Assembly (NCBI GenBank): GCA_048213135.1 | Contig: PS015041.1 | Coordinates: forward strand, 133,995 to 172,639 | Reading direction: 5' to 3' | Length of the DNA: 38,645 nt | Origin: Reclinomonas americana ATCC 50394 | Lineage: Eukaryota | Part shown: one piece after another, positions 4,334-34,825 of the stretch | Layout of the letters: every line of letters begins with the position of its first letter | How positions within the stretch are numbered: position 1 is the stretch's first letter | Position numbers and translations under genes: made by a program | The notes under the pieces: model-generated | What the model was told of the DNA's origin: nothing | Seen by the model: only the letters and a program-made list of their open reading frames with translations | The model's database searches: none

Positions 4334-4614
4334 GCTGGGGAAGGGAGAGGCAGAGAGAGGTAGAGAGAGAGAGAGAGAGGCGTCAGGCAGCTTGTGCGTG
4401 TGTACGACCGAGCTCGAGTGAAAGACGGATTTAATTGTGTGTCCTTCAAATGCGAGACTGTGTCCGTCGAAGTTCTCGCTTGATGACTGCACCTGTTCTC
4501 ACCAGCGTGAGGGGAATGAGAACGAGTACCTCTTCCCTCCACCGCTGAAGTTTCACAACACTCCATACATTTGCAGTTCAGCAATGGCAGACAATTTGCC
4601 TCCCTTTCTCTCCA

Positions 4615-5021: not shown

Positions 5022-8000
5022 TCACCTCTCGCGCTGCAGCTGCGCCTCCATTCCACGCAGGCGATCCTGCACACGCCGCCACGCCTGGCGAATCGGGTGC
5101 GGCGGCTGCGTCGACCACGCCCCCGACACGAGCGACTGCTTGCTCTCCAGCGACTCGTGACCGAGTGTCGGAAACGCGCGTACCAGTGCTCGTCGAGAGT
5201 GTGCACACGCGTCAACCAGGCTCCGGATGGCCGGCTCGTCGCCGAGTGCCGTCGCCAGAATCCGCTGCAGACGCACGCAGCATGAGACAACAAGAACTGT
5301 CTCCACGGGGTGAATCGAATGGCGCACCTGGCTCTCCTGCTTGCGTCGCTCTCGCTCTAGCAGCGTGCGCTTGCGTTCCGCCAGGTCATCCACCAGGCGC
5401 TGCTCCACCGCCGCCGCATCGAGAGGCCCACATGCCTCCACCGCGTCCCAGTGCAGATCAAAATTGCGCGTGTACGTCGTCACGGCGTTCTCATCCACCA
5501 GCTGCTGCATGGCCATGACCACATGGAACACCCGATAGAGGGGTCTGCCATTCACACGCTGTGCACCCGTGCGGAGGATCCAGTCGTCCATGGGCATGGC
5601 CGCTGGCAGCAGAGGCACGTGCAGCAACACCTCGGCGTCGTTCACATTGAATGCGAACACGTCGAGCCACAGCGTCACCGGCTGCAACAGGAGACTGGCC
5701 ATCGTGGCGCACTGCCATTGGATGAGTGGGCGCGGGATAGGCGAAAACGAATCCGTCGAGTCGACAAGCGAGGCCACGGGGATCCACCAGGCCTTGTTTC
5801 GCGACGACGGGCGCAGCATATGCAACACGCACGCGCACGCCCATGCGCGTCGCGAGGACACTGCACGTGAGCCCAGCACACCAGATGCGGCAAGACGCTC
5901 GAGGGAGGCAAGGAAACCTGGCGGAGAGGCAGAGCGATTTGAGGCAATCGTGGAAAGCCACTCTTCCATTCCATTCCAAACCTTCCACAGGTCCTTGCCC
6001 CTGAGCACACTCAATCACCGCCTCCATCACCATCCGCCTCACCACCGCCCAATCCCTCTCCTCCCCCTCTTTTCCCGTCTCCTCCATGGCTGCCAATGCC
6101 GCGACAGCCTCGACCGCGCTGCGTGGATCCGCCACGACATTAACACAACGTTGTGGTCGCCAGTCCCTCTGCACGTCGTTCCATCAGTGTCCTCCAACCA
6201 ACGTATCAAATGGACAGCAAGCCAAGAATAACACGCACTGCCGCTGCCATCAGAGTCACGAGGCGAATGTCGGTTCGCAGACTCTCCGTGACCACCGTCA
6301 GTACGCCGTCAGTATCGAGCAGTTCCGCCAGCAATGGCGATGTGGCTAGCGACCATCCTCGCCAAATTGGTGCCGACTTTACCCACACGTCGTCGTACTC
6401 GCGGCGTGAGGGATTCTGCAGCGCACAGATGAGAAAAAACGACCCTTCTTTTATCCAAACGACCCTTCTTTCATCTTCTCTCCACTACTGACAGGAAATC
6501 ATCTGTTCTCCCCTCCCGTCTCATTCATCGCGTCTTTTTCTTCTCTTTTTCTCTTCCCTGCCTCCCTCTCTTCTCTTTCCCGCACGTCTGTTCTCTCTCT
6601 CTCTCTCTCTCTCCCTCTCTTCTCTCATCCTGCACGTTCTCGCGGTACGCAACTCGCTCGTTGCGAAAATGCAGCCGATTCTGCCGCTGCGCGCCCGACA
6701 GCAGTGCTCCCATGGACATCTCCACTTCGCGCCACTGCGCGGCAACAACGGCCGCAGCCAGCAGATTCGATACCACGCGAATCCACAGCACTGTGCACTC
6801 ATATTGCCTGTGAGATAGGAAGCAGCTGGGACACAGCTGAATTTCATGGGGCACACACCAGACGAGGAGACGCGAAAGCTAAGTGCGGTGCGCAACCGCT
6901 GCCAGTCACTCGCATTTGGCGCACGACTGGTCAGCAGTACTGCAAATGAAGCCAGCGTCTCATGCCCCTCCAGCAACGCCCGCTCGTCGACGCGCACACC
7001 AGCGGGAGTGACACCCTCGTCCGTCGCAATGTGCGTCGCCAGCAGCTGGCTGATCTCATCCTTTGTGACGTCGCTGTTGCGCAGCGCGTGCTCAACTAGG
7101 CCACGCACCACCAGGGGTATGCAGACAAGCAACACGAGGACGACGCGCCACTCTCCGAGGCGACATGCAGACAGAATCGGCAGCCAGCGGCGCATGGCTT
7201 CGCGTGCTTGTCGGACGACTGTTTGCCGTGAGGCCGCAACCTCCCTGCTTTGCTGGAGTGTGAGAGTGTCGCAAATGGGATCAAAGGTGACCAAGAAGGT
7301 GACCCAACTTGTCGATCGACGGCATTAGCATCCACGAGTACGCCTCCACCTCCCTCTCGGTCACCGAGCGGCACTGTCGGACTGCGTGGGCGAGTGAGAG
7401 AGACGTACGCAAGGGAAGAACACGTATGCACGCCCACGCACTGGCCGTCGCAGCAACCGAGGCCCACGCCGACGACACAAATGACCACGTGTGCTGACTG
7501 CACGGTGTCACGTTCTCCGCCACAACTGCGCGCCAGAAGCGATGAGCACGCACTCATCGCATATTCCGCACACATGCAACGCACACTCTGCGCTGCATAC
7601 GGCATGCAGGCGATCGACCAGTCGCATCGCCAGTCGCTGCACGTGCTCCGGCACCCACTCGAGTGCCCTCACACACAACCCGTCCACATCATCCACGCTG
7701 CGCACCGGAAATCATTGGTTGTCTTCCCTCGCAGTGTCTGGCACTCTCACAGCCACTCACCTCACTCGCCGACGCACAAGTCGACACGAAGCCACCACAT
7801 GCCGCACCGCTGCACCCACACTCCCCGCCAGCGTCGTCGTCTTTGACGTGCGTTCACTCGGCGAATCCACACGCGCTACCGTCGACCACCACTCTGCCAG
7901 AGATGTTGTCAGCAGCGTCAGTGGCGCCTTCTCGACGCGCTCACATATCATCCGCATCACGCGCGTGCGAAGTGTCCACAAGCCCATTCCATCGCAGTCG

Positions 8001-9168
8001 CCATCGTCGACCAACATAATGTCCTCTCTCCCCTTCCCATCCACACGCAGTACCAGTGCCGATATCGGCGCCCCTGGCGCCGCCACAGCCAGCAGCCGCA
8101 ACACGCGCCACACCAACGATGGCGTCTCTGTCTCCTCCGCAACAAGAGCGCGCTCCACGTGCGCGGCTGTCTGCTGCACACTCCACTGCAGCAGCGGCTC
8201 CATCACCAGTCCACTGCGTTGTCGCAGTCGCAGCAAGCGGCACAAGCCAGAGGCAAACGCCAACAGCGGATCGCGCTCACCATCCACGTCTTCCACCAAA
8301 CTCACTCGCCACAACCACCAAAGACAGGCAGTCGTCGACTGTCGCACCCTGGCCACTGTCCACCGCCACAACAGCGCACGCCGCAATCGCTTCTGACGCT
8401 CCACAACCTGCTCCACTGCCACACCCTCCACTGCACTCGACACACATCCTGTCCCGCGACACGGTGAGCGCAGCGCGCCGCGGAAACAAACGGAAAGAAA
8501 AAACAGGAGAATCACTTACCGGCTTGTACGTGCAACAGAAAGTCGTCAAACTGGTCAAACTGGTGGGCGTCGGCCAGGCGCGGTGATCGCGACGCCAGTT
8601 GCCACGGGAGCTGGCGCTGCAACAATCAAGGAGACTGTGAGAGAGATGCCAGAGAAAGAGAAAGAGAAAGAGAAAGAGAACGGGGAAGACAAGGAGAAAG
8701 GAAAGAGAAAGAAAAGGTGAGTGAGGAGGACGGAGAAGGGAGGTTAGAACGAAGCAGTTGTCTTCGCTTCCTGCTTCTCTCCTCTCCCTCGCACTCATCT
8801 CCTCTTTATCTCTCACCTTCATGACTCTCGCTTCCTTCATCGTCACGGCAACCAACCTCGAGACCCCTTCTCCCTTCTTCTTTGTCTTCTTCTTCTTCTA
8901 CTCTTTCCCTCTCTCTCTCCCACCCTTCTCCTCTTTATCTCACCTCCTTGACCGCCACCGCCACCCACTTCCACACCGCCCACACTCTCCTCGCCACACG
9001 CCACACTCGTCGCTGCCTCGCACCACCCACTCGCGCCCATCGCCTGGCCACATGCACAAACGCAAGCGCATTGCCATCACACACACGTTGCTTCTGCAGG
9101 GCGCACAGAGCAGTGCGCTGCCAGTGGCGACGCACACGCCCAATGTGCGCAACAAGCGCGGCCTGCAT
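5022..9168 (-). CDS. Large multi-exon hypothetical protein (helical, W/L/R-rich; roughly 1000 aa)
   Basis: Coding-like segments (ORFs 8935-9204, 7757-8515, 7508-7705, 6521-7294, 6525-6854, 6206-6388, 5491-6174, 5022-6014) can be chained by GT-AG introns that are in phase where checked (e.g. donors at 8943, 8816, 6653). No family was recognised. The start could be 9204, and several junctions are uncertain. Confidence 0.55.
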
Positions 9169-9250
9169 GCAACTTGAGATTGAGAAATCGACTTCGTTTG
9201 TCATGCTGTCAGCTGTGTGTGCACATCAAGCGTTGCTGTGCATTGTAGGG

Positions 9251-9555
9251 TGCTTACAGAACCTCCTCTGCAAATGAAAAACGTGTTGCATTTGCTGCTG
9301 CAAGTGCACGTCGCGATCGCGAAGTCGTGCTCAAAATCAACATCTCCTTCTCTTGCACCTCTCCGATCCACTACGCACAGTGTTCTCCCCTCCAACGTAG
9401 TACTCTCATATCCGGTAGAATGCTTGCAGAACCTCCTCTGCAAGTGAACGTCGCGAAGTCGTGCTCAAAATCAATTGCAACAACTTCGTACGTTCCCTGG
9501 ATCTCTTGCACATCGTGCTCAGTGTTCTCTCCTCTCAACAAAGCACTCCCATACC
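9251..9555. repeat. Degenerate intergenic direct repeat (~140-170 bp unit, 2 copies)
   Basis: TGCTT(A/G)CAGAACCTCCTCTGCAA(A/G)TGAA occurs at 9251 and 9421. TCGCGAAGTCGTGCTCAAAATCAA and CAGTGTTCTC...ACTC(T/C)CATA each occur twice. Confidence 0.8.
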
Positions 9556-9939
9556 CGCGCGCCCTTGCAGCACATCAAAGATCCACCAGCGCAAACTTGA
9601 ATGAGCTGCACCAATTTTTCCGTGGTGGCCCACAAGCCGAGTGCCTCTGCGCCGCTGTCCTGCCTTGGCGGCGGTGCGCGCAGCGGCTTTTCCTTTGAAC
9701 AATATAACAATCCAAAATCCGGTCGGATATAGTTTCGCCTCTGCATTCCCGTGTGGCAGGCGACGTTCCCCCGACCTCGAGTACTCTCTCGTTTTGCAGT
9801 GTCGACGCGACTTGTGTGTCTATCAATCTCCTGGCTTTTGTCTGGGAGAGTGGCGCATGTTGGTCTGGCACGCAAAGACATTACCTGTAACTGGACAAGG
9901 AAGAACGAAACAAGTTCATGTGGAGAAGACTGAGGATTA

Positions 9940-12221
9940 TCATCGTCCGGTGGGCGCGTCGTCGTCTTCGTCGTCCATGGGCGAGTCCGTGTCGGCCAGC
10001 AACGCGGTCTTGTCGGTGGTCGGTGTCTTCTTGTCGCGCTTCAGGCGCGCGTCGACTTGTGATGCTCCCCGCTCCCTGCGCACACACACTCGCCAGTCAG
10101 TCAAATGTCAAGAAGCGCGCAAAGTCAGACACCACCAAGAACCTCCATCGATCCAGCACACCGGGCGGACCGGCAGGCGGTGCTCCCGGCGGGGCTGGCA
10201 GATTGGCATTGGTGGCGGCAGCGCCTGCGCCATTTCCGCTGCCCAGACGCCGTGCATTGGAGGCGGCGGCCGAGGAGGAGGATGAGCTGCCGCCCAGTCG
10301 CACGCCACCGGCATTGGCGTTGCTGGTGGTGCTGATCGGCAGCGTCTCCAGCTGCGCCTGGAAGCGGCGGCACAGACCGAGGCATCGGAAGGCGTTGTAG
10401 ATGGCGTTGGTCACTGGCTTGACGCAGCCGCTGAGCGTGCGTGTGTGCCAACAAGGTGAGCACGAGTGCAAACAAAGTATCAAGGGGGGCGGAGGTGACA
10501 CGAACGAAACTGGCAGAAAATGGGGAAGAACGAGGCAAACTCAAAGCCGGGCGACGGATCGCCAATCGTGTCGTCGCGGTTGTGCTGCATGAAGCGCAGG
10601 TACACCCAGGAGCTGAGCAGGCCGGCCACACTGAAGACGAATTGGAGGTAGATGCCGTTCAAGAAGTCAATGATGAGGGTGAAGAGGAGCGCCACCGATG
10701 GCACGTGCTTGGCGCGCAGCTCGCAGGCGAACAGGCAGTTCACCGGCTGCTCCGGCATCAGGCGTTTGAAGGCGACCGTGTAGCCGACGACCACGGCGTT
10801 GTAGCTGCCGTAGGGCCAGTGCCTGCAAAAGGGGGAGGGGATTAGGAAAAGGGATGAGGGGGGTGGGGGAGGCGGGAAAGGGCGCAAGGGAGAAGGGATG
10901 AGGGGGACAGGAAGAGACAACAACTGAGGAATGAAAGAAGTGGGATAGATGGAGGGGAAGGAGAAGGAGAGAGGGGAAAAAGGAGGGGAACAAACAATGT
11001 TGCGGGTGAGAGGAAGACGAGAAAGGGGGAAGGGGGATTAGGAGAAGGGATGAGGGTGACAGGAAGAGAAAACAACTGAGGAATGAAAGAAGTGGGATGG
11101 AGGGGGAAGAAGAAGGAGAGCGAGGGGAAAAGGAGGGGAACAAACAATGTTGGGGGTGAGAGGAAGACGAGAAAGGGTGCAAGAGAATTGGCAGAAGGCA
11201 ACAGAGAAGTATGGGGAGTGACAAAGGCAGCGAGTGGTGAGCCGAGCAAGGACGTGATTGGGGATGAGGGGAGAATGCGAGATAGAGAAGGAGAAAGAAG
11301 CGGGGAACCCACGAGAGAGGAAGAGGGGACAAACAAAACCGAGCGTGCGAGTGCAATTGAATTGGTAAGCTGGGGTTGGACGACGAGCAGCGACGGGAAA
11401 GAGTCAACAAAGACACAGTATTGAGAGAAAGTACGCTGCCAGAAGGAAGGGAGAGAGGGATAAGAGAACTCGAGCTGTGTCAGCAAGATCGGGGGTGCAG
11501 AGTACGAGCAAAACGATGAGAGGCGAGTGCATCCATTCCACCGCTGCACGCAACAACAACAGGAACGCCTCGCCTGGATTAGCCATGAGCGAGTACAGCT
11601 GGATCACCGAGTAGAAGATCAACCCGGACGCGGTGGCCACCACGAGCACGAACTTTACGGTTTCCCGCACACCCCATTGCAGCTCCAGCATCTTCCAGAA
11701 GATGAGCGTCACCACCACGTGCATGAGGACCTGCAAGGGAGAGAGAGAGAGACAGGAGAGAGACGAATCAGCAGCACGCCGAGGCTGCACCTCAATTTCG
11801 TTCAATTGCTCCTCACCGGCAACAGCTCATACTCGAACAAGATGCCGGTGACCACGTTCCACACATAGTACTTCTCGCTGAACGTACTGCGCAACACGAA
11901 CAGCAGTCAGCACACCACAAGAGAAAAGAAGACAAACAGGAGAGCGCAACAAGGCCGGCACGAGAGCGATTGCAGTCACCACCGACAAGCCCATCTTGAC
12001 CATGAGATACACGGTGGCGAGAAGGCCGCAGAGGATCTTGGCCGCCAGTGGGATGTCTTTGAAGGGGTTCAGAAGAGCGCCGAGCTGCACGGAAGAGAAG
12101 AAAGTGAGGCAAGGAAAGGAGAGGAATGTGAGAGAGAGCGGGAAGAGCAGCAGAAGAGTGAGTGAATGTGAAAAGAGCAGGGCGAAATGCAGACAACTGA
12201 GTGCAAGGGATCAGACAGTGC

Positions 12222-12278
<57 letters not shown>

Positions 12279-12673
12279 TGAGAGAGAGAGACGAACGGGC
12301 AAGACAAGTGAGTGCAGGGGATCAGACAGTGCGATAAGGAGTGCTTGAGTGCGTGAGTGAGTGAACGTGTGTGTGTGTGTGTGTGAGCGAGTGTGTGTGT
12401 GTGAGAGAGAGAGTGAGACAAGTGAGCGGATAAGGCGCGCCTAAAGTTGTCAAGGCGACGATTTAGGCGCGCTTTTTCTCTTTCTCTCTCTCACTCTCTC
12501 TCACACACACACACTCACTCACTCTCTCTCTCTCTCACGCACACTCACTCACTCACTGTCTCTTCTTTTCTCAAAGTTGTCACACTTTTCCCTCTCTCAC
12601 ACACACTCTCTCTCACCTGACTCTGCTGCTGAGGAGCGCCCTGCGCAGAGGGCGAGTTGCCTGCATCACTCAT
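9940..12673 (-). CDS. TMEM115: Transmembrane protein 115 homolog (DUF1751, rhomboid-like Golgi protein), 7 exons
   Basis: The spliced model reads MSDAGNSPSAQGAPQQQSQ|LGALLNPF...YYVWNVVTGILFE...KMLELQWGVRETVKF...VAFKRLMPEQ...LRAKHVP...SWVYLRFMQH...GDPSPGFEFASFFP...DRWRERGASQVDARLK. These match TMEM115 hallmark motifs as recalled (WVYLRF, GD..F.FA.FFP). Exon 1 is 12617-12673 and the stop is at 9940-9942. Confidence 0.9.
10890..11180. repeat. ~150-bp tandem duplication in a TMEM115 intron
   Basis: AACTGAGGAATGAAAGAAGTGGGAT occurs at 10922 and 11074, and AGGAGGGGAACAAACAATGTTG at 10981 and 11131. Confidence 0.85.
12226..12275. repeat. (TG)n microsatellite in TMEM115 intron 1
   Basis: A pure TG run of about 25 units. 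Confidence 0.95.
12350..12560. repeat. Imperfect inverted repeat (fold-back) in TMEM115 intron 1 with a 38-bp palindromic apex
   Basis: GCGCGCCTAAA (12435-12445) and TTTAGGCGCGC (12462-12472) flank a 16-nt spacer that contains GTTGTCAAGGCGAC. The outer arms, GTGAGCGAGTGTGTGTGTGTGAGAGAGAGAGTGAGA and TCTCACTCTCTCTCACACACACACACTCACTCAC, are near reverse complements. Confidence 0.8.
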
Positions 12674-12772
12674 TCTCTCTCGCTGTGAGAGGTGTGCTGA
12701 CAAGTGTCGTCATGCCACGTCATCGCGGTGATTTGTCCTTGGTGGTCGTTTATTTGAGTGTGACACAGAGAT
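12674..12772. promoter_or_regulatory. Candidate compact bidirectional promoter between TMEM115 and CCDC180
   Basis: There are 99 bp between the divergent predicted ATGs (12673 on minus, 12773 on plus). The spacer contains TGCCACGTCA at 12713-12722, a bZIP-type TGACGTGG motif on the minus strand. Confidence 0.55.
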
Positions 12773-13053
12773 ATGTTTGAGGCGCAGTCTGCGTTGGCGC
12801 GCTCGTTGAAGCAAGAGCGTGTGGCGCAGGCGAAGCCCGATGCGGATCGGAATGTGTTGAAGCATCCAAAGTTGAGTGGGAGGGAGAGGGAGGGAGGGAG
12901 GGAGGGAGGAGAGTGAGAGAGTGAGTGAGTTAGAGAGTGAGTGAGAGAGTTAGAGAGAGAGAGAGAGGAGGACAGACAGACAGACGAGGCAGCAGGCAGG
13001 CAGGCAGGCAGGCAGGCAGAGAGAGAGAGAGAGAGTGAGAGAGAGAGAGACAG

Positions 13054-13090
<37 letters not shown>

Positions 13091-13295
13091 GAGGTAGAGA
13101 GAGAGAGAGTAGAGAGACGGAGACGAGAGAAGACGACGACGAGACGACGGACGGACGGACGGACGGACGGACGACGTAGNNNNNNNNNNNNNNNNNNNNG
13201 AGATTAGGTTGGTAGTTGTATTGTTGTATACGTCGTCTACTCTTCCCTTCCTCGTCTCTCTGCTCTCTCTCTCTACACTCTTCTCACTCTCTCTA

Positions 13296-13341
<46 letters not shown>

Positions 13342-16300
13342 TCTCTGTCCATTGGTTTCATCGTTCTCTGCGTCGGTTTCGATGCATTTTGGTCCTGTTT
13401 GCATTCTGTCTCGTTCTTGTTGTTGCTCTTCTGCTTGTCCTTCTCCCTCTCCATCTCACTGGACTCATCCACACTTGTCGTCTCCTCATTCTTCTTGTTT
13501 TCTCTCTCTCTCTCTCTCTCTGTGCCTGCTCTTCCTTTCGTTTCATTGCTTCCAGCGTCGGTTTCGATGCATTCTGCTGCTTTGATTGCTCTCTCCTTCT
13601 TCTGTTTCTTCTGCTTGTCCTTCTCCCTCTCCGTGTCTTACTCATCTTCCTCGTCTCACGTCGTCTTCGTCTTTCCTCCATCCCTATCGATTCATTCAAA
13701 CTCTTCCTCCTTCTCCTTGCCTTTGCCCTTCATTTCATTCACTCTTCTTCTCTCTGTCATTGCCAACCCATTCTCTCCTCCTTCTCGTCCTCCTCCAATG
13801 CTCTTTACTTGTCTTGGTTTGTGCCATTGCTTTTGTGATCCAGTGCTTGCATTCACTGTTGACACTCATTCCTCCACCTCTCTCTCTCTCTCTCATTGTT
13901 TCACTGACGTCCGTCCTCTCCCTCCCTCTCCCTCTACTGCCCAGACCCGTCGACCTCACCGTCAACGGCTCGCTGCCGACATCGGTGGCCACTGGCGCCC
14001 TCAGCGACCTCTCGATCGAGGAGGTGTGCATGCTGCTGCAGTCGACACCGTCGTCGCCACTCGGACGCAACGCAGGTGGCGCGCTCAATCCCGTGCAACT
14101 GTCGCGATTGAGGCGCGCGTTGCGTGCGCGTGTGGAGGAGTTGCAGGCAGAAGGTGAGTGTGTGTGTGTGGGAGAGGGGAAGTGAGCGCGTCTCTCTCTC
14201 TCTCTCTCTTTGCCTCACTCGCAATGCGCTTCTTCGCTTGCACGCTCACACGTGCACTCACTCTCCCCGACACAGCCGATCGCACGGAGTCGGAGGCCGA
14301 TTTCGCCACGCGCATGCAGCAGCTGCAGGACCGCTTTCCCATGTGTGCCGACATGATCACCGATGCCATTCACAGTTGAGTTTGCCGTGGCGAGGGAGGA
14401 GATGGTCACACACCGCAGCTGACATTGATGCAGGCACGGAGAGCAAGTCGGCCGTGAAAGCGCTGCCAAAGGAGCTCCCGACTCCGCGTGGCGAACAGAC
14501 CGGTCTGCTTGATCGATTGAAGGAGAAGCGACGCATCAAGTTTCGTGCACGCATGTCATGTTGCTCAGTCCCCTCGTTTCCTTGTCTGTCTTTGCTATTC
14601 TTCGTGTTTCGCACTTCGTTACTGTCCCTTCCTGCTCGTGTCTACCTCTTCCTTCTCTTTTCCACATACTATCTCTGCCGATCTCGCTGTCACTTCTTTG
14701 TTTCGCACTGCTGCGTTTCAGTCTGGTCGTGTCTGCTCTGTCTCTGTCTTGCTTCGCACTTTGTTGTACTTTCTGTCTGCTCATGCCTGTCCTCCTCCCC
14801 CTCTCGTCCCTTTTTTCCTTCTCACTCGCCTTTCCCTCTCCAGACACGAAGAATGCATCCAGCAATACCGCGAGGATCTGGGTGCCAGCGACGTGCGCAC
14901 CGAGCACATGTTGGCCGAGGTGTCGCTGAGTCTGCGTGCCTCGCTACAATCGATGGAGGAGGAGATTGGAGCACTGATGATGGCGCTGAATGATGAGGGA
15001 CTGGCGGAGCGTGAGCTGCCACATGTGGATCGCCAGTGGGATATGACGTTTGACGCGTTCAGGCGGCAAGAGTCGTGGATCAACACGTTTGAGACGCAAT
15101 TGAATGACTTGCAGATCGAGCAGCAGGAGGACGGCACTCGTCGTTTGCGCACGTTTGTGGACCGCGTGTATGATGTGGCGTACCTGATGAAGGAGCAGAT
15201 TGCGATGCTGGTGGAGGTGGGTGTCTTCTGAGATGAGAGAGTGTCGTGACGTTCTGAGAAAACTCTGCCTCCTCTCTCTTCTTGAGCTCTCTTCTCCCTT
15301 CGTCTTCCCCTCCTTCTTCCCCTATCGTCTTCCCCCCTTCCGTCTCCCCACTCCATCTCCCCCTTCCGTCTCCCCACTCCATCTCCCCCTTCCGTCTCCT
15401 CACTCCATCTCCCGCCTTCGGTCTTCTCCCTTCGTNNNNNNNNNNNNNNNNNNNNNNNNNNNNNNNNNNNNNNNNNNNNNNNNNNNNNNNNNNNNNNNNN
15501 NNNNNNNNNNNNNNNNNNNNNNNNNNNNNNNNNNNNNNNNNNNNNNNNNNNNNNNNNNNNNNNNNNNNNNNNNNNNNNNNNNNNNNNNNNNNNNNNNNNN
15601 NNNNNNNNNNNNNNNNNNNNNNNNNNNNNNNNNNNNNNNNNNNNNNNNNNNNNNNNNNNNNNNNNNNNNNNNNNNNNNNNNNNNNNNNNNNNNNNNNNNN
15701 NNNNNNNNNNNNNNNNNNNNNNNNNNNNNNNNNNNNNNNNNNNNNNNNNNNNNNNNNNNNNNNNNNNNNNNNNNNNNNNNNNNNNNNNNNNNNNNNNNNN
15801 NNNNNNNNNNNNNNNNNNNNNNNNNNNNNNNNNNNNNNNNNNNNNNNNNNNNNNNNNNNNNNNNNNNNNNNNNNNNNNNNNNNNNNNNNNNNNNNNNNNN
15901 NNNNNNNNNNNNNNNNNNNNNNNNNNNNNNNNNNNNNNNNNNNNNNNNNNNNNNNNNNNNNNNNNNNNNNNNNNNNNNNNNNNNNNNNNNNNNNNNNNNN
16001 NNNNNTCCTTCGTCCCTTCGTCGTCCCTCCTGTCTTCCCCCTCCGTCTTCCCCTTTCGTCTTCCCCCCTTGCCCTCCCTTCCATCCCTCTTTCCCTTCCT
16101 CTCATTCCCCTTTCCCACCCATCCCCTTCCCCTTTCCCATTGCCGCAGGAATTCGCCCTGCAACAAAACCTCAAACTCGTGGAGGTGCGCAAAATGTTCA
16201 CCGACATTATCACGCGCCTTCGCGTGCACGCCACCCGTCGAGAGCGCGAGACGCGACACTTGTGGGAGCAGCGCAAGCTGGCGTGGCGTGGCGTGCACCA

Positions 16301-22563: not shown

Positions 22564-22573
22564 ATTGTTTGTG

Positions 22574-25438: not shown

Positions 25439-25562
25439 TCAGGGAGACAGAGACACAGACACAGACACACAGACGCACACACAAAGAGTGAATGCACACA
25501 CACACCACTGCTCTGTCTCCTCTCCACACGATGCAATGAGAAAAATGAACCAACCGAGTCGT

Positions 25563-28500
25563 TCATGAAGAATGAGAGGACACGGCAGAGGACAGGCTCT
25601 CGGCTAAGCTGCGAACTGCACGCGACTCGTCGGCTTGTGCTAGCGATTGCAGTGTGCGCTGGGTGCGCTCTACTAGTGCCGGTGCGCGTTCCAGAGCATT
25701 GACGCACGTGCCAATGATGCTGCCGATGAGTTTTATGGCAGCTAGGCGGACCTGGAAATAGGAAAAGGTGAGTGGATGGCGTGTGCGAAGTGGGACAATG
25801 CAGGTGATGCTTGCCTCTGCTTGCGAGTCTTGTGTGCAGTCGACGGCGACGGTGAGAAGGGCGACAGCGGAGGCGTACGCGCTCTCCTTGACGCGCATGA
25901 TAAAGTGGAAGAGGGTCTGCACGAGAGGCGCAGAGTGAGACGCCACACAGAGACACGAGCGGGGTTAAGCCACGCAACGTTCAGTGCAGCGATGCGGAGT
26001 GGCACCGCTGTGTGTGCGTTTGCGCTCAGATCGACAAGCGTCGAGTGCAGGCGAGAGAAGAGTTTCAGTGCCGTGGCGAGGGACACGCGCGGGAGCAGTG
26101 CGGCGACCACTGGCAAGGCATACGATGACCACGGCGAGCTTGCCGACGTCGTGATGGAGGAGAGCAGTTCCTCCAGTAGCCACGATGAGGAGGATGCCGA
26201 TTGTGTGGGCACAGGGGTCTCGATTTCTGCAGCGCGAGAGTCTCAGGCGGGAAGGAAATAAAGGAAATATGTCGTGAAAAAGAACCTTCGATAACCGGGC
26301 GACGGCTCTCCTCCTCCCTCGGCGGCGGCGGCTCCACGACGACTGGATTCTTGAGGCTATCCAACTGGACAGCGGCAACCAACGACAGGCAGTCAATGGC
26401 ACCACGATGCAGATTCTCCACTTGCTCGCCTGCACAAGAGCGGGTGTTGGTCGAAGTGGCGCAGCAAAGGCACAAAAGTGCACATTATATCTTCTCGCAA
26501 CTGACACGCGGGAGGTCGAGCAGGCGGATCAGTGCATGCACGAGTCGACGCTGTGCAGTGGTCTCCTGCTCGCCTCCTTCTCCACATAGCGACTGATGAT
26601 AGTTGAGCTTGCAACACGCCACATACAGGTGCAACTTGACGAGTTCCAGATCGGATTCAGCGCTCGTCTCCTTTGTGTGTCATGCAAGGTGAGGACAAGA
26701 GAAGTATCGAGTCGCGAAACTTGTTGGGTTCACGCACCTCGATGAATTGCAAGACCTGATCGAGCACCAAGGCAGCTGGCAATCGGGCGAGACCCTCAGC
26801 AACCAGCTTCCGCACCTCGCGACCCTCGAGGATGTTGTGCATGCGCTCACGCAGACGCGCTGTACACCAGTTTAATGAGCAAGAGCACAGGCATTCAAGG
26901 TCCACGCACTTACCAGCAAGTCGCACAAGATCTTCCTCACACTGTGCCGCGAGCAGCGGGTCACACAGGGCGCTCACTGGCAACGACCGCAACACCAGCA
27001 ACGGACTGAGCCGAGCAAACGTGAACACACGATGAAAGTCGTCCTCGTCAAGAGCTCGGAGCGTCGCCACATAGGATTCGGTCACACTGCACACACTACG
27101 TCGTCAGACAGCGACGCAGTACTTCCCTTCCCCCATCTCCCAACCCCACGCACGGTTTCTCGCGCGCCATGTGGCCGACCAAGAGGGGGAGAACGTGCGG
27201 CAATGTGCGTGGGAACAGATGCGACGAGGCACTTGACAGGAAGGAGACGGCGGCGGGGTGGTTCGGGCGCGACAGAATCACTCGACACGTCTCCACCGCC
27301 ACCGCGTCCAGTGTCGCAGGATCCATCTGCACCACACTAGTCAGCCAAGGCGGCGGAGAAGGAAACGTGCCACAAGCTCATGAAGCGTGCCTTGCCAATC
27401 CACTGATCCGTGAGACGCACTACGCGCTCCAACAGTCGCTGCGACGGTGTGACTTCGGCAGCCACACTCGTTGCCGCCGACGGAGTCTTGCCAATCTGCG
27501 CTGGTGAGCGAGGTGCCTCCGTTCCACTGGAGACAGTGGAGACGGAGGCATCGGCGCTGTCAAGTAGGAATGAGTGACCCCGCAGCGACACAAAGGCAGT
27601 CCACAGAGCTGGATACCAACCTCAACACCTCCAGCAGTGTGCTGATCGCCTGATCCGTGTACGGATTGCTCGACATGATCGCCACAAACGCTCGCTCGGC
27701 CGCCGCACGTGTTCGCTCATCGCGCGCCGTGAGAGCGCGCGTCACTGGTGGCAGACTGCGTTCGGGTTCTACGGCACCGCAAAGAGGAAGGTGTGAGCTC
27801 CTGGAGGCACACACGCTTCTCTCGTCAACGATGATGATGGTCCACTCACCAACCACGGAAAACACCCGCGACGTGGCGGTGCGCGACGACAGGTCCTCGT
27901 CGCTCAGCCGGCGAATGAGTAGGTCACACAAGCGATTGCTGTGCGGCGGCAGAGTGAGGGGAGACGCGTGAGGAAGCGAGGGGGGAGAGTCCTTGCAATC
28001 AAACCTCAGCTCTGCATCGCCCTGCAGCACGTGCACGTTGAGGTCACACAGCCGTTCCACGACCGACAACGCGTTGCGGCGGACTTGCGGCTTGTCAGAG
28101 TCCAGGCGGGCAAACACCGCCGGCAGCACCAGGTCCTTGTCTCTGCGTGCGGCGAGTGAGACCAAGGCTGTGCATGAAAAAAGGCAACATGGCTGGCCAC
28201 GAAACAGGACGGCATACTCGGCGAGGAACACGGACGCCATGCGCGACGCCTTGTCCTTCTCATCCAGCGTCTCCAGCAACTGCTGTACCATGAACTCGCG
28301 TGCTGCGCGATCAAACGACGGCAGCGCGGCGTGCAGCAATTGCGAGGCCACATCCACCACTGCGTCGTTGCCGTGTGTCATCTAATGGGCGCGACGGGTG
28401 AGTGCATGGTGAACATCGACTGGCACACGACGTGCACACACCAAGCCAGGCAGCAGCTGCAGTAGAGCCTGTTGCATCTGACCATCCTCTTGCAGCATGG

Positions 28501-30150
28501 CAGTCGCCGTGGCCTGTCCGACAGCACCCAACACCAGGCAGACGCACGTGAGCAGGCACACAATTTCCTCTTGAATGCCGGCCGATGAGTCTTCCGACTC
28601 GCCCTCGATATCGTCCTCGAGTCGCGCCTGCCTCCGACAACGAAGCATGAGAGAGAGAAGGCAATGCACGAACTTTGACCCGCCACGCAACAGACACTGA
28701 CACAATCAACGAGCCCACGTACTCGCGACTCGTGCCACGCAGCGGTCGCACCGACGCCGCATTCTCCACCAAGCACAAGCTAAACAGACGCATGCGGGAC
28801 GCAAACCACTGCTGCGCCTCCTCCACGGCTGCACAAGTGTGAGGACGCCACCAATAAGCACAAACTCTCTTCCTTCTCTTTCCCCCCAACGCACCAGCCT
28901 GCCACTCGTGACGATTGTCGCGCTCCGCCAGGCCATCCGCCTCCGCCCTTTGCTGCAACCGCACCACCGTATCACACGACTCCACCACGCCCTGCAAGCC
29001 GCGGAGAAACAATGGTCGCGATCGACGATACCACTGCACCACAAAAACANNNNNNNNNNNNNNNNNNNNNNNNNNNNNNNNNNNNNNNNNNNNNNNNNNN
29101 NNNNNNNNNNNNNNNNNNNNNNNNNNNNNNNNNNNNNNNNNNNNNNNNNNNNNNNNNNNNNNNNNNNNNNNNNNNNNNNNNNNNNNNNNNNNNNNNNNNN
29201 NNNNNNNNTCAGCCACCAGCGAGCTCACCAACACGGCCTCTGCACGCAACCTCCTGCAGCACGCCGAGTGCCGCACGCAGCGACGACGCCCACTGCCACA
29301 CACGCGACGCAGCAGCAGCATCACACGACGCCGCATACACCATCCACCACACAGCATCCAGTGCCTCCACCGACACTCGCGTCGGCTGTCGCTCAGCCGA
29401 CACAAGCACACTGTTGCGTCAACACAGTATGACCAACCACAGCAACTCGAAAAAAGAACACGATCAACTGCATGGAAGTACCTGTGTCGTGTCGCACAGT
29501 GGACGAGCGATGGCACCAGTGACATGAACTCAGTCAGCACACTCTGCACTGCTGCTGCCACTGGTGCAGTCTCCTCCCCTTGTTGATGATGGAGGCACAC
29601 TAGTCGCGCACACTCGCCCGCAGTCAACGCAAACACCATGCATGCACGAGTGTTGTCCACAGAAGACGAGGTGAGCACTGATTGCATGGTCGATTGCATC
29701 CAACAACACTGACTGCGGTTGCTCAGTTGTGTCACATGAGGGCCTTCTTTGATTGTGAGAGTGTGAGACAGAGAGAGGCACCAACCTGTCTCCACTGACA
29801 GAGGACAGCATGTGATCGAGTGCCTGCAGGGCTCTCACCAGCAACAGTCGTCGCACTCGTTTCGATTCTCGGAGGAACTGAGAGAGACAAGTGAGAGTCT
29901 CTTTCTTTCACAGTCAGTGAGCTTATTGCTCACCTTCTCACACATTAACAGCAACAGGCGATGCCATGTGTCGCCTTCACTGCGAGCTGCAGCCCAGACG
30001 GCCTCCAGTAAGCTCGGAACTTGACTCTCTGTGTGTGTGTGAGTGAGTGAGTGAGTGTGTGTAAGAGAGAGAAAGAGAGAGTGTGTGTGTGATAGCACAC
30101 AGGCCTCTCTTGCTTCCAGTGACGAGCAACTGTTGCAGCGCGTCTTCCAT
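25563..30150 (-). CDS. ARM/HEAT-repeat protein resembling the uncharacterised Arabidopsis At3g57570 family
   Basis: Ordered motifs LLIRRLSDEDLSSR; FARLSPLLVLRSLP; EVRKLVAEGLARL; HRGAIDCLSLV; TLFHFIMRVK...VRLAAIKLIGS...LQSLAQADESRAVRSLA match my recollection of that family. The probable start is MEDALQQLL (30150) and the stop is at 25563. The gene spans gap 29050-29208. Confidence 0.7.
25752..25814 (-). other. Probable GC-AG intron (63 nt)
   Basis: The junction reads GAG|GCAAGC...CTCAC...TTTCCAG|GTC. Removing it gives SQAE-VRLAAIKL, a continuous HEAT helix, and no GT donor is available in phase near the boundary. Confidence 0.6.
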
Positions 30151-30206
30151 GTTTGTTTAGACTGATTGCAAGAGTGGGACTTGTCCTTCGTTCTTCTTTA
30201 AGTTCA

Positions 30207-33200
30207 TTACTCGTCGACGACGATCTGGATGTTGACCGACTTGCGTTCGCTCTTCTTCGGGTACATGGCCCTGTGCTCGTCGACCCACGCGGACGGTCGG
30301 TAGACCCGGTCACTCGCGTGCGACATGAGCTGCACAAACATCTCCCACGAGTGCTTGACGGTTTCGCCAAACTGCGGGTGCGAGGCCAGCACGCTGAGGA
30401 CGACGTTGAGGTTCTGCGGGTCGATCACCACCAGGTGGTCGCGCAGCTCGCGGCGAATGGTCACGTCGGCCGAGCTCACCAGCAACGTCGCCACTTGGCG
30501 GCACGTGAAGCGGTGCCGCTCGAGGGCCTTGCTGATCTGCTGTTGGGCGTTGCGGGGAGCGCTGGCGCGCAGTGCACGTGCGATGCCCTCGGGCGTCACG
30601 TCGGTGGTGTGTGCGTTGAGGAGGTGCTGGGCGTGCACGCTGACGGCGCTGGAGAAGCGCTGGAAGGTGAGCGGGTGCATCGGGGCCACGCCGCGGTCTT
30701 CCATCTCGTGCCACACGGCCGCGTGCAGCTCCGTGGGAACCACCATGAGCACCTGTGAGAGAGGGAGGGAGGGGAAGGGGGGAAGTGGAAGGCAATAAGC
30801 AAGATGATCTTCCTCATCTTCCTCAGAAACTCACAGCTTCCTCCTCTCGGCTTTGCTCTCGCTCCTCTCTCTCTCATCTTCTTCTCCTTCTCTGCCCCAC
30901 TCACCCGCGACAGGTTCTCCGGGTCAGCCACACGGGCGCCAAAGAAGCGAGCGGCGGCGAGAACGGACTCGCGCAAGGCCGGGGTGACACCGTTGTCTTC
31001 GCCGTCATCTTCGTCCCACGGCAGGCGTGCGGGTGAGCCGTCGGGCGACGGCACATTGTCTGGCGAAGTGGCGGGTGACGGTGTTGGCGAGCGTGCCATC
31101 TGCAACTCGGCCGGAGTGGTCTCCTGCAACACGCCCTCTACCGCCATCCGCACGCCCACAGGCTCCTGCTGGAAGCGTACAATGCGATTGGCAGACGTGC
31201 CCGAGCGCTGCGAAGATGGTCCGTTCGAGTTGAGCCTGGGCAGCGCACCGCGCTCCGGCACCTTGACCACGAAATCGCGCGGTGTGGCCATGGTGGCCGT
31301 GGCCGCCGTGTACAGCTGATCCTCCCCGTCTTCGTCGCTGCCGGCGAGACCGAAATCGTCCTCTTCCTCTTCCTCTTCTTCCTTCTTCTTCTTCTCCTCC
31401 TTCTTCTCCTCCTCCTCCGTCGTCGACGTCGTTTGCGCTGGTGGTGGCGGCTGTTGCTCGTCCTCCTGGTCGGGGAACGGCAACTTCTCCTGCACCATCG
31501 GCGACTGCATTTCGCTCGTCGTGCCGGCCAGTGAGGCGGAAGCGGAAGCGTCCGAGCCGATCGGCGCAAACAAATATGCGGCGGCGGCGGCCGCGGCGGC
31601 CTGCAAATCCTCAATGGGCGGCAACGGAGGGCGGGACGGCGGTGCCGCGGCTTGCGGTGCTGGCACACTGACATCAACCGACGGCAGCGGCTCCGGCTGC
31701 ACCGCCGGCGTGAACATCATGTCGGACTCGGCCGGCGCGTCGGTAAAGGCGTTGCTGGAGGTCACCGAGCTCCGTCCATCACCGGCCTCCAGGGCCTCGG
31801 TAAACACACTGCTCGACGCGGCCGAACTCCGCCCGTCGCCGCCTCGCGCCTCCGTCTCGCTCATTGGCGAGCCGAGCTCCACTGCCGAGCCAAACTCCGA
31901 CACTTGCACCTCTTCCACTGCCTCGCTGGAGGCCGGCCGGTTCTCGTTGTCCATCACAATCCTTCTCGACGCTGATTCCACCACCGGCGCGGCCGCTGTT
32001 GCTGCTGCTGCTGCTGCTGTGGCATCGGCCTCTGGTTGCGCCGCCGGGATGGCGAGGAGAGGCACGGATGGAGGCGGTGGCGGCGGGCGAGGTCGTGTGG
32101 CGATGGAAGCGTGTGCCGAGTGCGGCGGGGGAGCAATAACAGCCTCCGCCGCCGCCTTCTCCTCCCCCGCCTTCGCTCCCGCTGGCGGGCCCCAATCTTC
32201 TCCCTCGGCACCCTCGTCCATGTCCAGGTGAACATCATACAAATCGACATCGGCATCTTCGCACGACTCAAAGTCCTCGGCCAGACTTCCCGTGAGGCTA
32301 TTGCCGCCGCCGCCACCCCTCGCAGCGGCAGCCTCGGCCACCACACCCGCCACCCGCGCATTCACGACAGCAGGCTCCACGGGCTCCGCCAACACACGTC
32401 GCAAGATCCAACACAAATCATCCGCGCTGATGAACTTCTCCTGCAACACACGCATGGTGGTGGCCACACGCTTGACCAGCGTCGCCGCCGGCCTCGGCGG
32501 CAACCGATTCAACACCGCCTCCAGCTCCTCATCGCCAATCATCGGCACGGGCGGCGGATGCTTGAACACCAACAGACACAGCGTCGCCTTGTGCCCATTC
32601 GCCGTCGACTGCATCCCTCCAATGACTGCTCCTCCGCCACTGCTATTGCTCATTGACGACGAGTTCGACATGAGCGACTGCGGAGACAATGGTCGCTGCT
32701 GCTGAGGAGGCGATGGAGCTCCCGCCAGCAACAGCTGCTTATGCAACACCTGTGCCATTTGTGGAGACATGGGCGACGATGCTCCTGCTCGTTGTGCCTG
32801 CACCATTGCTGCGAGCTCTTCTGCGTTCTCCACGACCATGCTGTGTCGTGAGCGCGTGGGCACCTGGAAGCCGAGGGCGGAGTCGTCGGCGAAGAAGGCA
32901 GAGGTGATGCTGCCTCGCGGGTTGCCTCCTCCTCCTGCTCCTCCATTGCCTGCTGCTTGTTGTTGGAGGTGTGCGTGAGCAGGCGAGGCTGCTCCCACAA
33001 AGGAGGCGCCTGTGAGGCCAGTGGGCGGAACGCGGTCGGCCTTGGTCGCCACTTGTCGAAGTCTGTCGTGACTCGACTGAGCAGAGAGAGAAGTGAGTGA
33101 GTGAGTGTGTGTGAAAGAGAGAGTGAGTGAGTGAGTGAGTGAGTGAGTGAGTGAGTGAGTGAGTGAGTGAGTGAGTGAGTGTGTGCGTGTGCGTGTGTGT

Positions 33201-33219
33201 GTGCGTGTGTGTGTGTGTG

Positions 33220-33253
<34 letters not shown>

Positions 33254-33322
33254 CAAGTGAATCATGCATGCATGCAGTGAGCATACCTCCACACAGCATG
33301 CTCGACAGCAACCTGCGCCCAT
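30207..33322 (-). CDS. 917-aa protein with an N-terminal MGxxCC acylation motif, long low-complexity regions and DUF4476-like domain(s); 3 exons
   Basis: Exons 33287-33322 (MGAGCCRACCVE), 30905-33076 and 30207-30752 are all phase 0 with GT-AG introns. KALERHRFTCRQVATLL...IDPQNLNVVLSVL and RVADPENLSRVL resemble the DUF4476 pattern F(S/T)CxQVxxLL...(I/V)DPEN. Confidence 0.75.
33093..33252. repeat. (GAGT)n and (GT)n microsatellites in intron 1 of the DUF4476-like gene
   Basis: Directly visible runs. Confidence 0.95.
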
Positions 33323-33825
33323 GTTGTGTCTGTCTCTCTCTCACACACACACTCAGTGGAGCACGTGGAAGGCTCTCCACACGTGTGTGCGTGCGGAAGA
33401 ATGCAGAAGTGGAGGTCGACTGCTGCTGTTGCTGCTGCAGTGTGTGTTGTTCCTCACGCACAGCAACAGTCACTGTGACGCGCTCACACGGATGAACACT
33501 CAAGAGTACACACACAAACACACACAGAGTGGAGACTCTCTTTCTATCTCTCTCACACTGTGGTTTGAATGATTGGCGGGAGACAGATATCGATCGTTTT
33601 TGTGCGCTGTTTCTTGTCGCATGAGACTGACTGGCGGCCACTCAGTGTGTGTAAGAGAGGAGGCGGAGGCATGCAGGTGTGCAGTGCGTCGAACGATGGG
33701 CGAGTGCGTGCACGTGCTGCAGGTGTGTTGTTGCATGCGCGGACATGTCCGGCTTCTTGGCCTCGAGTTCGCCCAGGGAGAGCGCCTGATGGTGCGCCAT
33801 CAATGTGAGTGCAGTATGCTGAAGG

Positions 33826-34116
33826 TTGCAAGCTCGAGTGCCTGATCGCGCGCCTGCAAACTGTTCCTTCATTCGAATTCGTGAATCTTTCTCGCGCGCA
33901 CGTGCGTCGAGCTCGCCGCAGCGAGCACATCGATCGCTGCATGCATGTGGCAAGCATACCGAGGCTGTGGAGATGCAGCGGCGTGTGGTGGCCGACAATG
34001 AGCGGATTCATGGAGTGCGCGACGAAGAAACCTTCGACAGTCGCATGATCTTGTTCATGCTCGACAAGTCTGGCCGGCGTGACGAGGCCGAGGAGGTACT
34101 CTCCGCAGTCACTTGA
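33826..34116 (+). CDS. Short kinesin-light-chain-type TPR fragment (small gene or remnant)
   Basis: SLHACGKHTEAVEMQRRVVADNERIHGVRDEETFDSRMILFMLDKSGRRDEAEEVL resembles the TPR_10/12 pattern (G...EA..+.R......R+.G.....T..S...L). The start is not resolved. Confidence 0.4.
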   Translation: MQARVPDRAPANCSFIRIRESFSRARASSSPQRAHRSLHACGKHTEAVEMQRRVVADNERIHGVRDEETFDSRMILFMLDKSGRRDEAEEVLSAVT

Positions 34117-34264
34117 CTTCTGCTGTCCGTGGGTATATGTTGATACACATCCTGTCTTGCAATTGTAAATGTCGTCGGAAACGAACACCAGTATTGATGG
34201 TCGAGTTGGCATCGACGTCCCCCCTCTCACATATTCTGCCTCTTGTCCATCTCGCACGCCAACC

Positions 34265-34825
34265 ATGAGCAAGTCGCCCACCTCTACCATTATCCTCGTC
34301 ATGGCCGCAACGATCTGCGTCTGCTGCGCCCTGCTGCAGGTCGCGGCGTACGTGGAGTCCAGCTGGCCGTGCACCAGCGCTTGTTGCGTGCACGCCACGC
34401 CACCCACATCCCCGCAAAACCCCAACCTCTCTCTCAAATACCCCTCCTTCCGTGCACAGCCTTCGGCATTCACCTCGGACACCACGACACCGAGGGCACT
34501 GTGCAGTGCGACGGCGTGCCCAACAATTCGACCATGTCCTTTGTCTTCGACGAGGGTTCAATTGTGGAGCCCGACACGTACGTCATTGTGCTCACCGACG
34601 CCAACGGCAATCAGGTGTGGAGCACCACAGAGCGTGGCTCCTCGCAGGGAGGCGTCGCCATTTCGTGGGGCGACCAGGTACTGTGTTCCGACAACCTGCT
34701 GTCCATGCCGCACGCACACCCCGCTCCTCACCGCCCTCGCCCCGTCGCAGAGCTACCACGTCGACTTTCGCTGCAGCAACTCCTTCCGCAGCTGCAAGGG
34801 CGAGTTCGCACCGATGTTCCACTGA
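34265..34825 (+). CDS. Small predicted secreted protein (~135 aa, 3 exons)
   Basis: A signal-peptide-like N-terminus MSKSPTSTIILVMAATICVCCALLQVAA is followed by in-phase introns at 34383-34459 and 34678-34750. The mature part is beta-rich (YVIVLTDANGNQVW...YHVDFRCSNSFRSCKGEF). Confidence 0.7.
   Translation: MSKSPTSTIILVMAATICVCCALLQVAAYVESSWPCTSACCVHATPPTSPQNPNLSLKYPSFRAQPSAFTSDTTTPRALCSATACPTIRPCPLSSTRVQLWSPTRTSLCSPTPTAIRCGAPQSVAPRREASPFRGATRYCVPTTCCPCRTHTPLLTALAPSQSYHVDFRCSNSFRSCKGEFAPMFH

Follow-up and report, generated by a model that had tools for sequence, protein, structure and literature searches.

A probable second class of 5' splice sites, with GTT at the intron start and a conserved G at +6, in a stretch of the Reclinomonas americana genome

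Introduction

Human 5' splice sites that pair with U1 small nuclear RNA (snRNA) in a shifted register were reportedly described by Roca and Krainer in 2009, and the bulge register of human 5' splice sites is said to have been set out by Roca et al. in 2012. The human sites of the shifted kind amount to a handful. Here we examine a stretch of 38,645 bases from Reclinomonas americana ATCC 50394 (contig PS015041.1, positions 133,995 to 172,639; the whole stretch is called the window below), in which introns of a TMEM115 gene, a CCDC180 gene and other genes appear to begin with two kinds of 5' splice site (donor), an ordinary one and one that starts with GTT.

In the accessible text of PMC4856993 (Tan et al. 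2016), both the shifted register and a register with a bulge at +2/+3 are established experimentally in human cells; 'Shifted +1' serves there as a control, with Roca and Krainer 2009 cited for it, and predictions place the +2/+3 bulge at no more than 68 sites in human, 54 after curation. A different division is drawn in the part of bioRxiv 10.1101/2022.04.05.487178 available to us, where two major classes of 5' splice site, AG//GU and //GURAG, are balanced through U5 and U6.

The GTT kind is found in the window at what the reading frames indicate to be exon ends, with its conserved G one base deeper in the intron than in ordinary donors, and we consider it probable, from the sequence evidence set out below, that these sites form a real donor class. 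That the class reflects a U1 register shifted by one base, used as a common second kind of donor, is a reading on which we place about half of our confidence.

Results

GTT-type donors among curated introns

An earlier note on this DNA had listed 14 GTT donors and had proposed that they make up a second class in which the conserved G stands at +6 instead of +5. All 14 motif strings are in the sequence at the positions and on the strands of its list, every one begins with GTT (14/14), and the base before it is A, C or T, never G (14/14). The names that it had given to the two main host genes were upheld by Pfam: the open reading frame (ORF) at 11407-11826 on the minus strand, a single exon, matches DUF1751/TMEM115 (E=3.9e-6), and the ORF at 14521-15228 on the plus strand matches DUF4455/CCDC180 (E=3e-10, profile positions 6-132 of 469). 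The CCDC180 match falls on the exon 14844-15220, and the later exons of that gene have no individual matches.

The window is one stretch holding about 30-40 introns. Curation by hand gave a table of 28, of which 23 come from CCDC180 (14154-19898) and TMEM115, read in three frames, and five from other genes. Left out of the table were donors beside runs of N (about 15217-15223, and 20127), the sites 12871, 7308 and 6653, most of a gene with HEAT repeats, and the last TMEM115 intron, whose donor lies somewhere within 10100-10260. All 28 introns are GT-AG, and the translations across their junctions are open. GTT-type donors open nine of the 23 introns in the two fully read gene parts; the earlier note had put the share in the same two genes at about 10 of about 32. 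Bases at the donors compare as follows (p values from Fisher's exact test).

G at -1: 0 of 12 GTT-type donors, 13 of 16 ordinary donors, p=1.5e-5
G at +5: 0 of 12 GTT-type donors, 14 of 16 ordinary donors, p=6e-6
G at +6: 12 of 12 GTT-type donors, 2 of 16 ordinary donors, p=6e-6
T at +7: 10 of 12 GTT-type donors
A at -2: 5 of 12 GTT-type donors, 11 of 16 ordinary donors

The proposed move of the conserved G from +5 to +6 is thus borne out in these introns, as is the anticorrelation of the GTT class with G at -1, where the 12 GTT donors have A five times, T five times, C twice and G never (small numbers). With a slash for the proposed cut, the consensus is (A)G/GT[G>C,A]NG[T/C] for ordinary donors and H/GTT[G/T][A/C]G[T/C] for the GTT class; aligned at their right ends, the heptamers GGTGAGT and GTTGAGT differ at one position. 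The two classes also differ in where they interrupt codons: nine of 13 GTT donors are in phase 2 and one is in phase 0, whereas 12 of 16 ordinary donors are in phase 0 (Fisher p=5e-4).

In other respects the classes resemble each other. Intron lengths are 59-80 nucleotides (nt) and 49-122 nt in the two classes, with two long introns in the GTT class besides, and common to both are a branch-like CTGAC or CTCAC motif and the YAG acceptor (CAG or TAG) that follows it at 10-25 nt. Because lengths, branch-like motif and acceptors are shared, both classes look like substrates of one spliceosome, and neither looks U12-like. Short introns in the window cluster tightly at about 59-72 nt.

Two other accounts of the extra T were rejected. 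Had cleavage occurred after the G (G/TTGAGT, with the 3' end one base later), the last bases of the introns would read g, a, g, g, g, c, t, g, c, a, a, c, which has no pattern; and an assembly artefact, with a T inserted in error, would have to have struck precisely the +3 position of a dozen introns.

Placement of GTT sites by a donor-blind gene model and by coding drop

The placement of the GTT motif is far from random. This was seen with an exon chainer based on dynamic programming (DP). Exons were scored by codon log-odds, introns by their composition under a self-trained model and acceptors by a matrix, and nothing but GT was required of a donor; two versions were run, and the counts are from the one with the composition model and the matrix. 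The chainer has flaws, as some exons were merged, some small introns were merged or missed, and the donors at 10510 and 17564 were misplaced. The motif GTT[GT][AC]G[TC] was nevertheless carried by seven of the 41 donors that it chose, compared with 58 among all 4682 GT sites (p=5e-7), and the looser GTT..G in nine of 41, against 207 of 4682 (p=5.5e-5). GTT.G, with the G in the normal register, was not enriched (three of 41 DP donors against 203 of 4682 GT sites, not significant). Of the 15 DP donors with T at +3, 60% have G at +6, where the background is 27%, and 20% have it at +5, where the background is 26%.

The second measure used no gene model. For each GT site the codon score of the 60 nt that follow was subtracted from that of the 90 nt that precede it, each in its best frame, to give the coding drop. 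The 17 evaluable GTTG[AC]GT sites had a median drop of 4.7, whereas the median over 4504 GT sites was -1.4 (Mann-Whitney p=1.5e-5); six of these 17 sites rank among the top 5% of drops. For the ordinary form G/GTG[ACT]G[TC] the corresponding values were p=0.013 and eight of 93 sites in the top 5%, and for the other 701 GTT sites there was no effect (p=0.11). Both the DP enrichment and the coding-drop test are independent of the site choices made in the earlier note, and they therefore count against mis-modelled junctions. Codon score by itself, once GC donors were admitted as well, ranked the junctions with too much noise to be of use.

TMEM115 junctions compared with homologues

For TMEM115 the junctions could be compared with related proteins. 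A full HMMER search with exon 3 returned 380 relatives at E≤0.001, and a hidden Markov model (HMM) of 340 positions was built from 74 of 150 returned proteins (290-400 residues, starting with M). The best relatives in the library of 1.84 billion representatives share only 42-45% identity, and their taxonomic spread is wide (an amoebozoan, green algae, a jakobid, a fungus and a fern); since the closest are this distant and come from such different eukaryotic groups, the source organism would seem to have no close sequenced relative in that library. Spliced at the junctions of the earlier note, the TMEM115 model scores 248.3 bits over HMM positions 14-290 of 340, and its alignment is free of gaps at the 11950 and 10510 junctions. 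Every in-frame GT/GC-AG pair within ±75 nt of a junction was then rescored against the HMM, with the following outcome.

11944-11950, minus strand: TMEM115 donor T/GTTGCGC, 64-nt intron to the acceptor at 11886; top of 68 in-frame alternatives, 248.3 against 243.7 bits (margin 4.6)
10504-10510, minus strand: TMEM115 donor A/GTTTCGT, 80-nt intron to the acceptor at 10430; top of 16, 248.3 against 239.0 bits (margin 9.3)
11548-11554, minus strand: TMEM115 donor T/GTTGCGT, 732-nt intron to 10822; chosen by the donor-blind DP
11811-11816, minus strand: TMEM115 ordinary donor G/GTGAGG, control; top of 19, 248.3 against 232.5 bits (margin 15.8)

At 11950 the rival GC donor 3 nt downstream (11947) gives 242.2 bits against 248.3, which is 6.1 lower, and the nearest gap is a one-residue insertion three residues downstream of the junction. 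At 10510 the alignment runs without gaps through FFP...VKPV. The 11554 junction lies in a variable loop, where the earlier note had already pointed to in-phase alternatives; there are indeed five close candidates, 11560, 11557, 11554, 11551 (a GC donor) and 11566, all within 2.8 bits, and four of the five start with GTT. Homology thus argues that GTT donors are real at least in TMEM115. The sites at 11950 and 10510 are accordingly graded as strong candidates and 11554 as a moderate one.

Candidate donors in CCDC180 and other genes

Word-based protein searches with TMEM115 exon 3, the CCDC180 DUF4455 exon and the CCDC180 exon 16831-17196 returned no match; a PDB sequence search with the DUF4455 exon gave nothing but a chance match (E=0.73). 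The remaining candidates of the earlier note are graded from frame, coding score and the choices of the donor-blind DP.

Graded strong:
14375-14381, plus strand: CCDC180 donor A/GTTGAGT, intron to 14434 (or 14419); in-frame TGA 2 nt past the GT
17564-17570, plus strand: CCDC180 donor A/GTTGAGT, 62-nt intron to 17626; the GT that lies 5 nt beyond it does not keep the frame
25972-25978, minus strand: HEAT-repeat gene donor C/GTTGCGT, 62-nt intron to 25916; chosen by the donor-blind DP
34383-34389, plus strand: donor T/GTTGCGT, preceded by a first exon that looks like a signal peptide; 77-nt intron to 34460

Graded moderate:
16315-16321, plus strand: CCDC180 donor C/GTTGCGT, 64-nt intron to 16379; chosen by both donor-blind DPs
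14540-14546, plus strand: CCDC180 donor A/GTTTCGT, 304-nt intron to 14844; its phase matches that of CTCCAG, the acceptor at the start of the DUF4455 exon
19829-19835, plus strand: CCDC180 donor T/GTTGCGT, intron to 19898 (69 nt) or 19865 (36 nt); chosen by the DP

Graded weak:
12871-12877, plus strand: candidate first-exon donor A/GTTGAGT, in phase with the acceptor at 13945
17743-17749, plus strand: CCDC180 candidate donor A/GTTGCGC; codon score of the upstream exon low
7302-7308, minus strand: candidate donor A/GTTGGGT; only AGs after the first fit the phase, and coding scores are low
6647-6653, minus strand: candidate donor A/GTTGCGT; GA repeats follow

The case is clearest at 14375, where the coding score is high right up to the site, the coding drop is the largest of any motif site and the sole other in-phase GT lies 30 nt upstream. 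The other in-phase GTs around 17564 are at 17540, which would cost eight codons, and at 17594 and 17597, which would leave introns of 32 and 29 nt (the curated minimum is 49). Around 25978 the downstream in-phase GTs give introns of 38 and 32 nt, and upstream ones lie at 26005 and 26035. The GT at 34383 is the only one in phase from 60 nt upstream to 25 nt before the acceptor, the other in-phase candidates being GC.

Several reservations of the earlier note held on inspection. The 19829 intron can be read through in frame without stops, though it is T-rich at third positions; the acceptor for 7308 is as uncertain as had been said, the first AG after the CTCAC motif being out of phase; and 17743 has four other in-phase GTs. 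Downstream of 6653 on the minus strand no exon was found, and the gene may simply end there.

New GTT-type candidates, at least three in number and absent from the earlier list, also emerged in the HEAT-repeat gene; the first three below are in phase with their acceptors:

28199-28205, minus strand: new candidate HEAT-repeat gene donor T/GTTTCGT, 63-nt intron to 28142; chosen by the donor-blind DP; coding drop 13.7
23582-23588, minus strand: new candidate donor A/GTTGCGT, 65-nt intron with CTGAC to 23523; phase 2 with a CAG acceptor; coding drop 14.7
28685-28691, minus strand: new candidate donor T/GTTGCGT, 64-nt intron to 28627; phase 0 with its acceptor
26720 and 24104, minus strand: further HEAT-repeat gene candidates, from coding drop alone

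Gene content and sequence context of the window

The window is intron-rich and eukaryotic, with a G+C content of about 59% once the seven runs of N are excluded; third codon positions in exons are 80-94% G+C, which makes exons conspicuous. By Pfam it also holds the HEAT-repeat gene and WD40 repeats. TMEM115 (9940-12153, minus strand) and CCDC180 (plus strand) stand head to head across 12153-12773, where about 600 bp of CA/CT microsatellite separates the first recognisable TMEM115 exon from the candidate CCDC180 start codon at 12773. The runs of N, 2374 bases in all, are these:

13180-13199: N gap
15436-16005: N gap
20182-20446: N gap
21024-21774: N gap
29050-29208: N gap
35700-35719: N gap
36617-37205: N gap

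The gaps at 15436-16005 and 20182-20446 break CCDC180, and at least one exon junction is concealed on either side of them.

Near the start of the window, at 1-4500 on the minus strand, lie three tandem ORFs of 420-459 codons (538-1914, 1928-3235 and 3239-4498), which may be a repeat family or pseudogenes, because they have a much lower codon score than the other genes. A further WD40-like ORF at 2-382 on the minus strand reaches the start of the window; Pfam confirmed WD40 only at 2396-2542 (E=2.5e-9). An Rfam scan of the window gave no family at gathering thresholds and no snRNA match. Sub-threshold matches in a scan by E-value (plant microRNA precursors, SCARNA2 and the Hsp83 3' untranslated region, at 12376-12532, 13079-13292, 8619-8846 and 33129-33355) lie without exception in tracts of dinucleotide repeats and appear to be artefacts of low complexity.

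Discussion

A shifted U1 register would account for the features of the GTT class as follows. U1 snRNA would bind these donors one base downstream of its usual register, so that the first G of the intron stands in for the exonic G at -1 and the following U forms a single mismatch, while later steps of the spliceosome would still cut before the only available GU. The G that pairs with U1 would then lie inside the intron, and the true -1 base would take the place of the normal -2, which is usually A. That would explain the use of the GTT class in phases 2 and 1, where the last exon base is a second or first codon position and is not free to be G. Ordinary donors are mostly in phase 0, in which that base is a wobble position and, in this G+C-rich coding sequence, is free to be G. 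A shifted register predicts that -1 behaves like a normal -2, and so it does here, in small numbers (no G at -1 in 12 GTT donors, A at -2 in 11 of 16 ordinary donors). The earlier note had left the register as shifted or bulged; of the two, the absence of G at -1 favours the shift. Its further suggestion that the GTT form compensates for a missing -1 G keeps the anticorrelation on its side, but the form is not obligatory, as three ordinary donors (16653, 18478 and 19019) follow T.

Duplex energies computed with ViennaRNA fit this picture in part. On the textbook U1 5' end, with proteins ignored, a model that may not describe the U1 of this host, the GUUGAGU donors at 14375 and 17564 give -6.0 and -5.9 kcal/mol, pairing in the shifted register and leaving a 1x1 mismatch, and ordinary donors average -6.7 kcal/mol. 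The commoner forms GUUGCGU and GUUUCGU are weak in any register (-1.4 to +0.7 kcal/mol), as is the ordinary GUGCGU after a base other than G (-1.1 kcal/mol). Given this weak pairing of the commoner forms, the real U1 of the organism, or proteins such as U1C, must matter. We would go further only tentatively: the lineage may have made a shifted donor constitutive, in at least a third of its introns, freeing phase 1 and 2 exon ends from G, along with a lineage-specific change in the U1 5' end or its variants, in U1C/LUC7-type proteins, or in U6/U5 contacts that tolerate the extra U. This we regard as possible and rather doubtful.

The weak pairing of GUUGCGU and GUUUCGU is one of several points that weigh against the shifted reading, or against the GTT class altogether. 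As a word the motif is not over-represented: GTTGMGT occurs 18 times in the window against 12.83±3.13 in dinucleotide shuffles, 7 of 100 of which reach 18, and a base other than G at -1 is the background for GTT (83% of the 781 GTT sites in the window). Since count and background are both unremarkable, the real question is whether the listed sites are donors. Cleavage before GTT is itself something that we infer from frames, homology and composition. The ordinary donors that follow T, 16653, 18478 and 19019, count here as well; the T/C-rich intron model of the DP could favour T at +3, though not G at +6; the five to six other curated introns were chosen because the DP or the earlier note had flagged them; and the table is complete only for parts of two genes. 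Most GTT sites in CCDC180 and the HEAT-repeat gene have at least one other in-phase GT, and every site of the GTTGCG type has an in-phase GC 3 nt downstream.

These points can be gathered into the proposal that many GTT donors are modelling errors, the true donor being a nearby in-phase GT, the GC 3 nt downstream (GTT/GCGT) or a GT 5 nt downstream, with the heptamer a product of composition. Alternatives are present at most sites. The DP itself chose GTTCGT 5 nt downstream of 10510 with another acceptor, and at 14540, 28205 and 23588 a GT 5 nt downstream can be paired with another AG in frame or in another frame: GTGCAC after 14540 fits a weaker GAAG acceptor, beside many in-phase GTs further down in CT-rich DNA, and GTGCGT after 23588 would give the other downstream frame. 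In-phase competitors are GTATGC 12 nt upstream of 28205, four GTs within 30 nt of 28691, 16288 (GTGGCG), 16318 (GC) and 16333 (GTGCCT, 46-nt intron) around 16315, and 19820 and 19838 around 19829. At 17743 the GTs 17713, 17752, 17755 and 17773 match or beat its coding score, at 12871 the upstream exon scores -6.8 and an in-phase A/GTGAGA lies 41 nt downstream (12912), and in TMEM115 the GC donor at 11551 is only 1 bit below 11554 (247.3 against 248.3). Four of the 14 sites are weak, and the heptamer count is within chance. Yet at 11950 and 10510 homology rejects the other junctions, which fall 4.6 to 18 bits short (the pair that the DP took at 10510 scores 230.0), the stop codon at 14375 excludes any donor downstream, GTTGAGT and GTTTCGT offer no GC alternative, and random misplacement cannot give G at +6 in 12 of 12 donors against a background of 27%. 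We therefore hold modelling error to be quite unlikely as the general explanation.

If the sites are donors, their register may be other than shifted. U1, and later U6, could keep to the normal register by bulging out one of the two U's at +2/+3; in the accessible text of PMC4856993 such a +2/+3 bulge is validated in human cells, with GUU and then a good match to +3..+6 as its signature. The donors here are alike in having GUU followed by a consensus-like +4..+7, with either U available for the bulge, which would retain the +1 G and +2 U pairs and explain G at +6 and T at +7 no less well than the shift. On the exon side, however, a bulge would leave the register unchanged, so that the preference for G at -1, present in 13 of 16 ordinary donors, should still be seen; 0 of the 12 curated GTT donors and 0 of the 14 in the earlier list have that G. 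The minimum-energy ViennaRNA duplex for GUUGAGU is likewise the shifted one with its 1x1 mismatch and not a bulge (textbook U1, proteins ignored), and we consider the bulge unlikely. A second U1 variant, or a changed 5' end that pairs with GUUGNGU unshifted and unbulged, would give two dedicated recognisers. The poor fit of textbook U1 to GUUGCGU, GUUUCGU and even ordinary GUGCGU hints that the real U1 or its rules differ, and the class is frequent with a sharp consensus. A dedicated recogniser predicts neither the -1 G deficit nor the phase bias, though, and the U1 5' end is, to our knowledge, nearly invariant across eukaryotes; we think this account improbable. Donor recognition might, lastly, be loose, as in GTNNGY organisms, with GTT donors the tail of one degenerate class in no special register. 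Ordinary donors do vary (GTCCGT, GTACAC, GTCAGC, GTGATT), and GTT donors with G at +5 may exist (27621 G/GTTGGT; 17935 G/GTTTGT as an alternative). Against this stand the DP donors with T at +3, enriched for G at +6 and not at +5, the lack of enrichment of GTT.G, and the curated set, with G at +5 in none and at +6 in all 12, which together leave loose recognition very improbable.

Comparison with known splicing systems

GC-AG introns are alike in that the GTTGCG forms have an in-phase GC 3 nt downstream. A GC-AG reading was rejected: it costs 6.1 bits at 11950, it has no counterpart in GTTGAGT or GTTTCGT, and the resulting donors GCGTTC, GCGCAA and GCGTCC share no G at +5, though at 11551 the cost is just 1 bit. 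U12-type introns, which have an RTATCCTT donor and a TCCTTAAC-like branch near the 3' end, offer the parallel of a distinct second donor class in one genome. They were rejected too, as no curated donor resembles RTATCCTT, and CTGAC/CTCAC, acceptors and lengths are the same in both classes. The AG//GU and //GURAG scheme comes nearer, since there as here a strong intron side offsets a weak exon side and -1 G is anticorrelated with the intronic consensus; the intronic G is at +5 in that scheme, whereas here it is at +6 with an extra U at +3.

A literature search that covered neither supplements nor subscription journals, and that included the terms shift, bulge and register in the accessible text of the comparative paper PMC10599564, found no lineage with such donors as a major class. 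In practical terms, gene finders with a single donor matrix of 6-9 nt would misplace about a third of the donors here and shift frames; the errors of our donor-blind model at 10510 and 17564 are an example of such misplacement.

The closest resemblance is to the shifted-register sites of human genes, which likewise have GU at the cut, a poor canonical match with no G at +5 and a base other than G before the GU; their good U1 match one base inward has its counterpart here in the GUUGAGU sites, on textbook U1. They differ in being a handful, whereas here nine of 23 introns in two genes appear to use such donors, with a sharp consensus and a phase bias. If the shifted reading is right, this would be the first case known to us in which a non-canonical U1 register is a routine means of intron definition and not a rare exception, and it would offer a natural system in which to study what fixes the cut site apart from the U1 register, how an extra base between the GU and the conserved G is accommodated by U6 and U5, and whether coding constraint at exon ends, through phase, shapes donor types.

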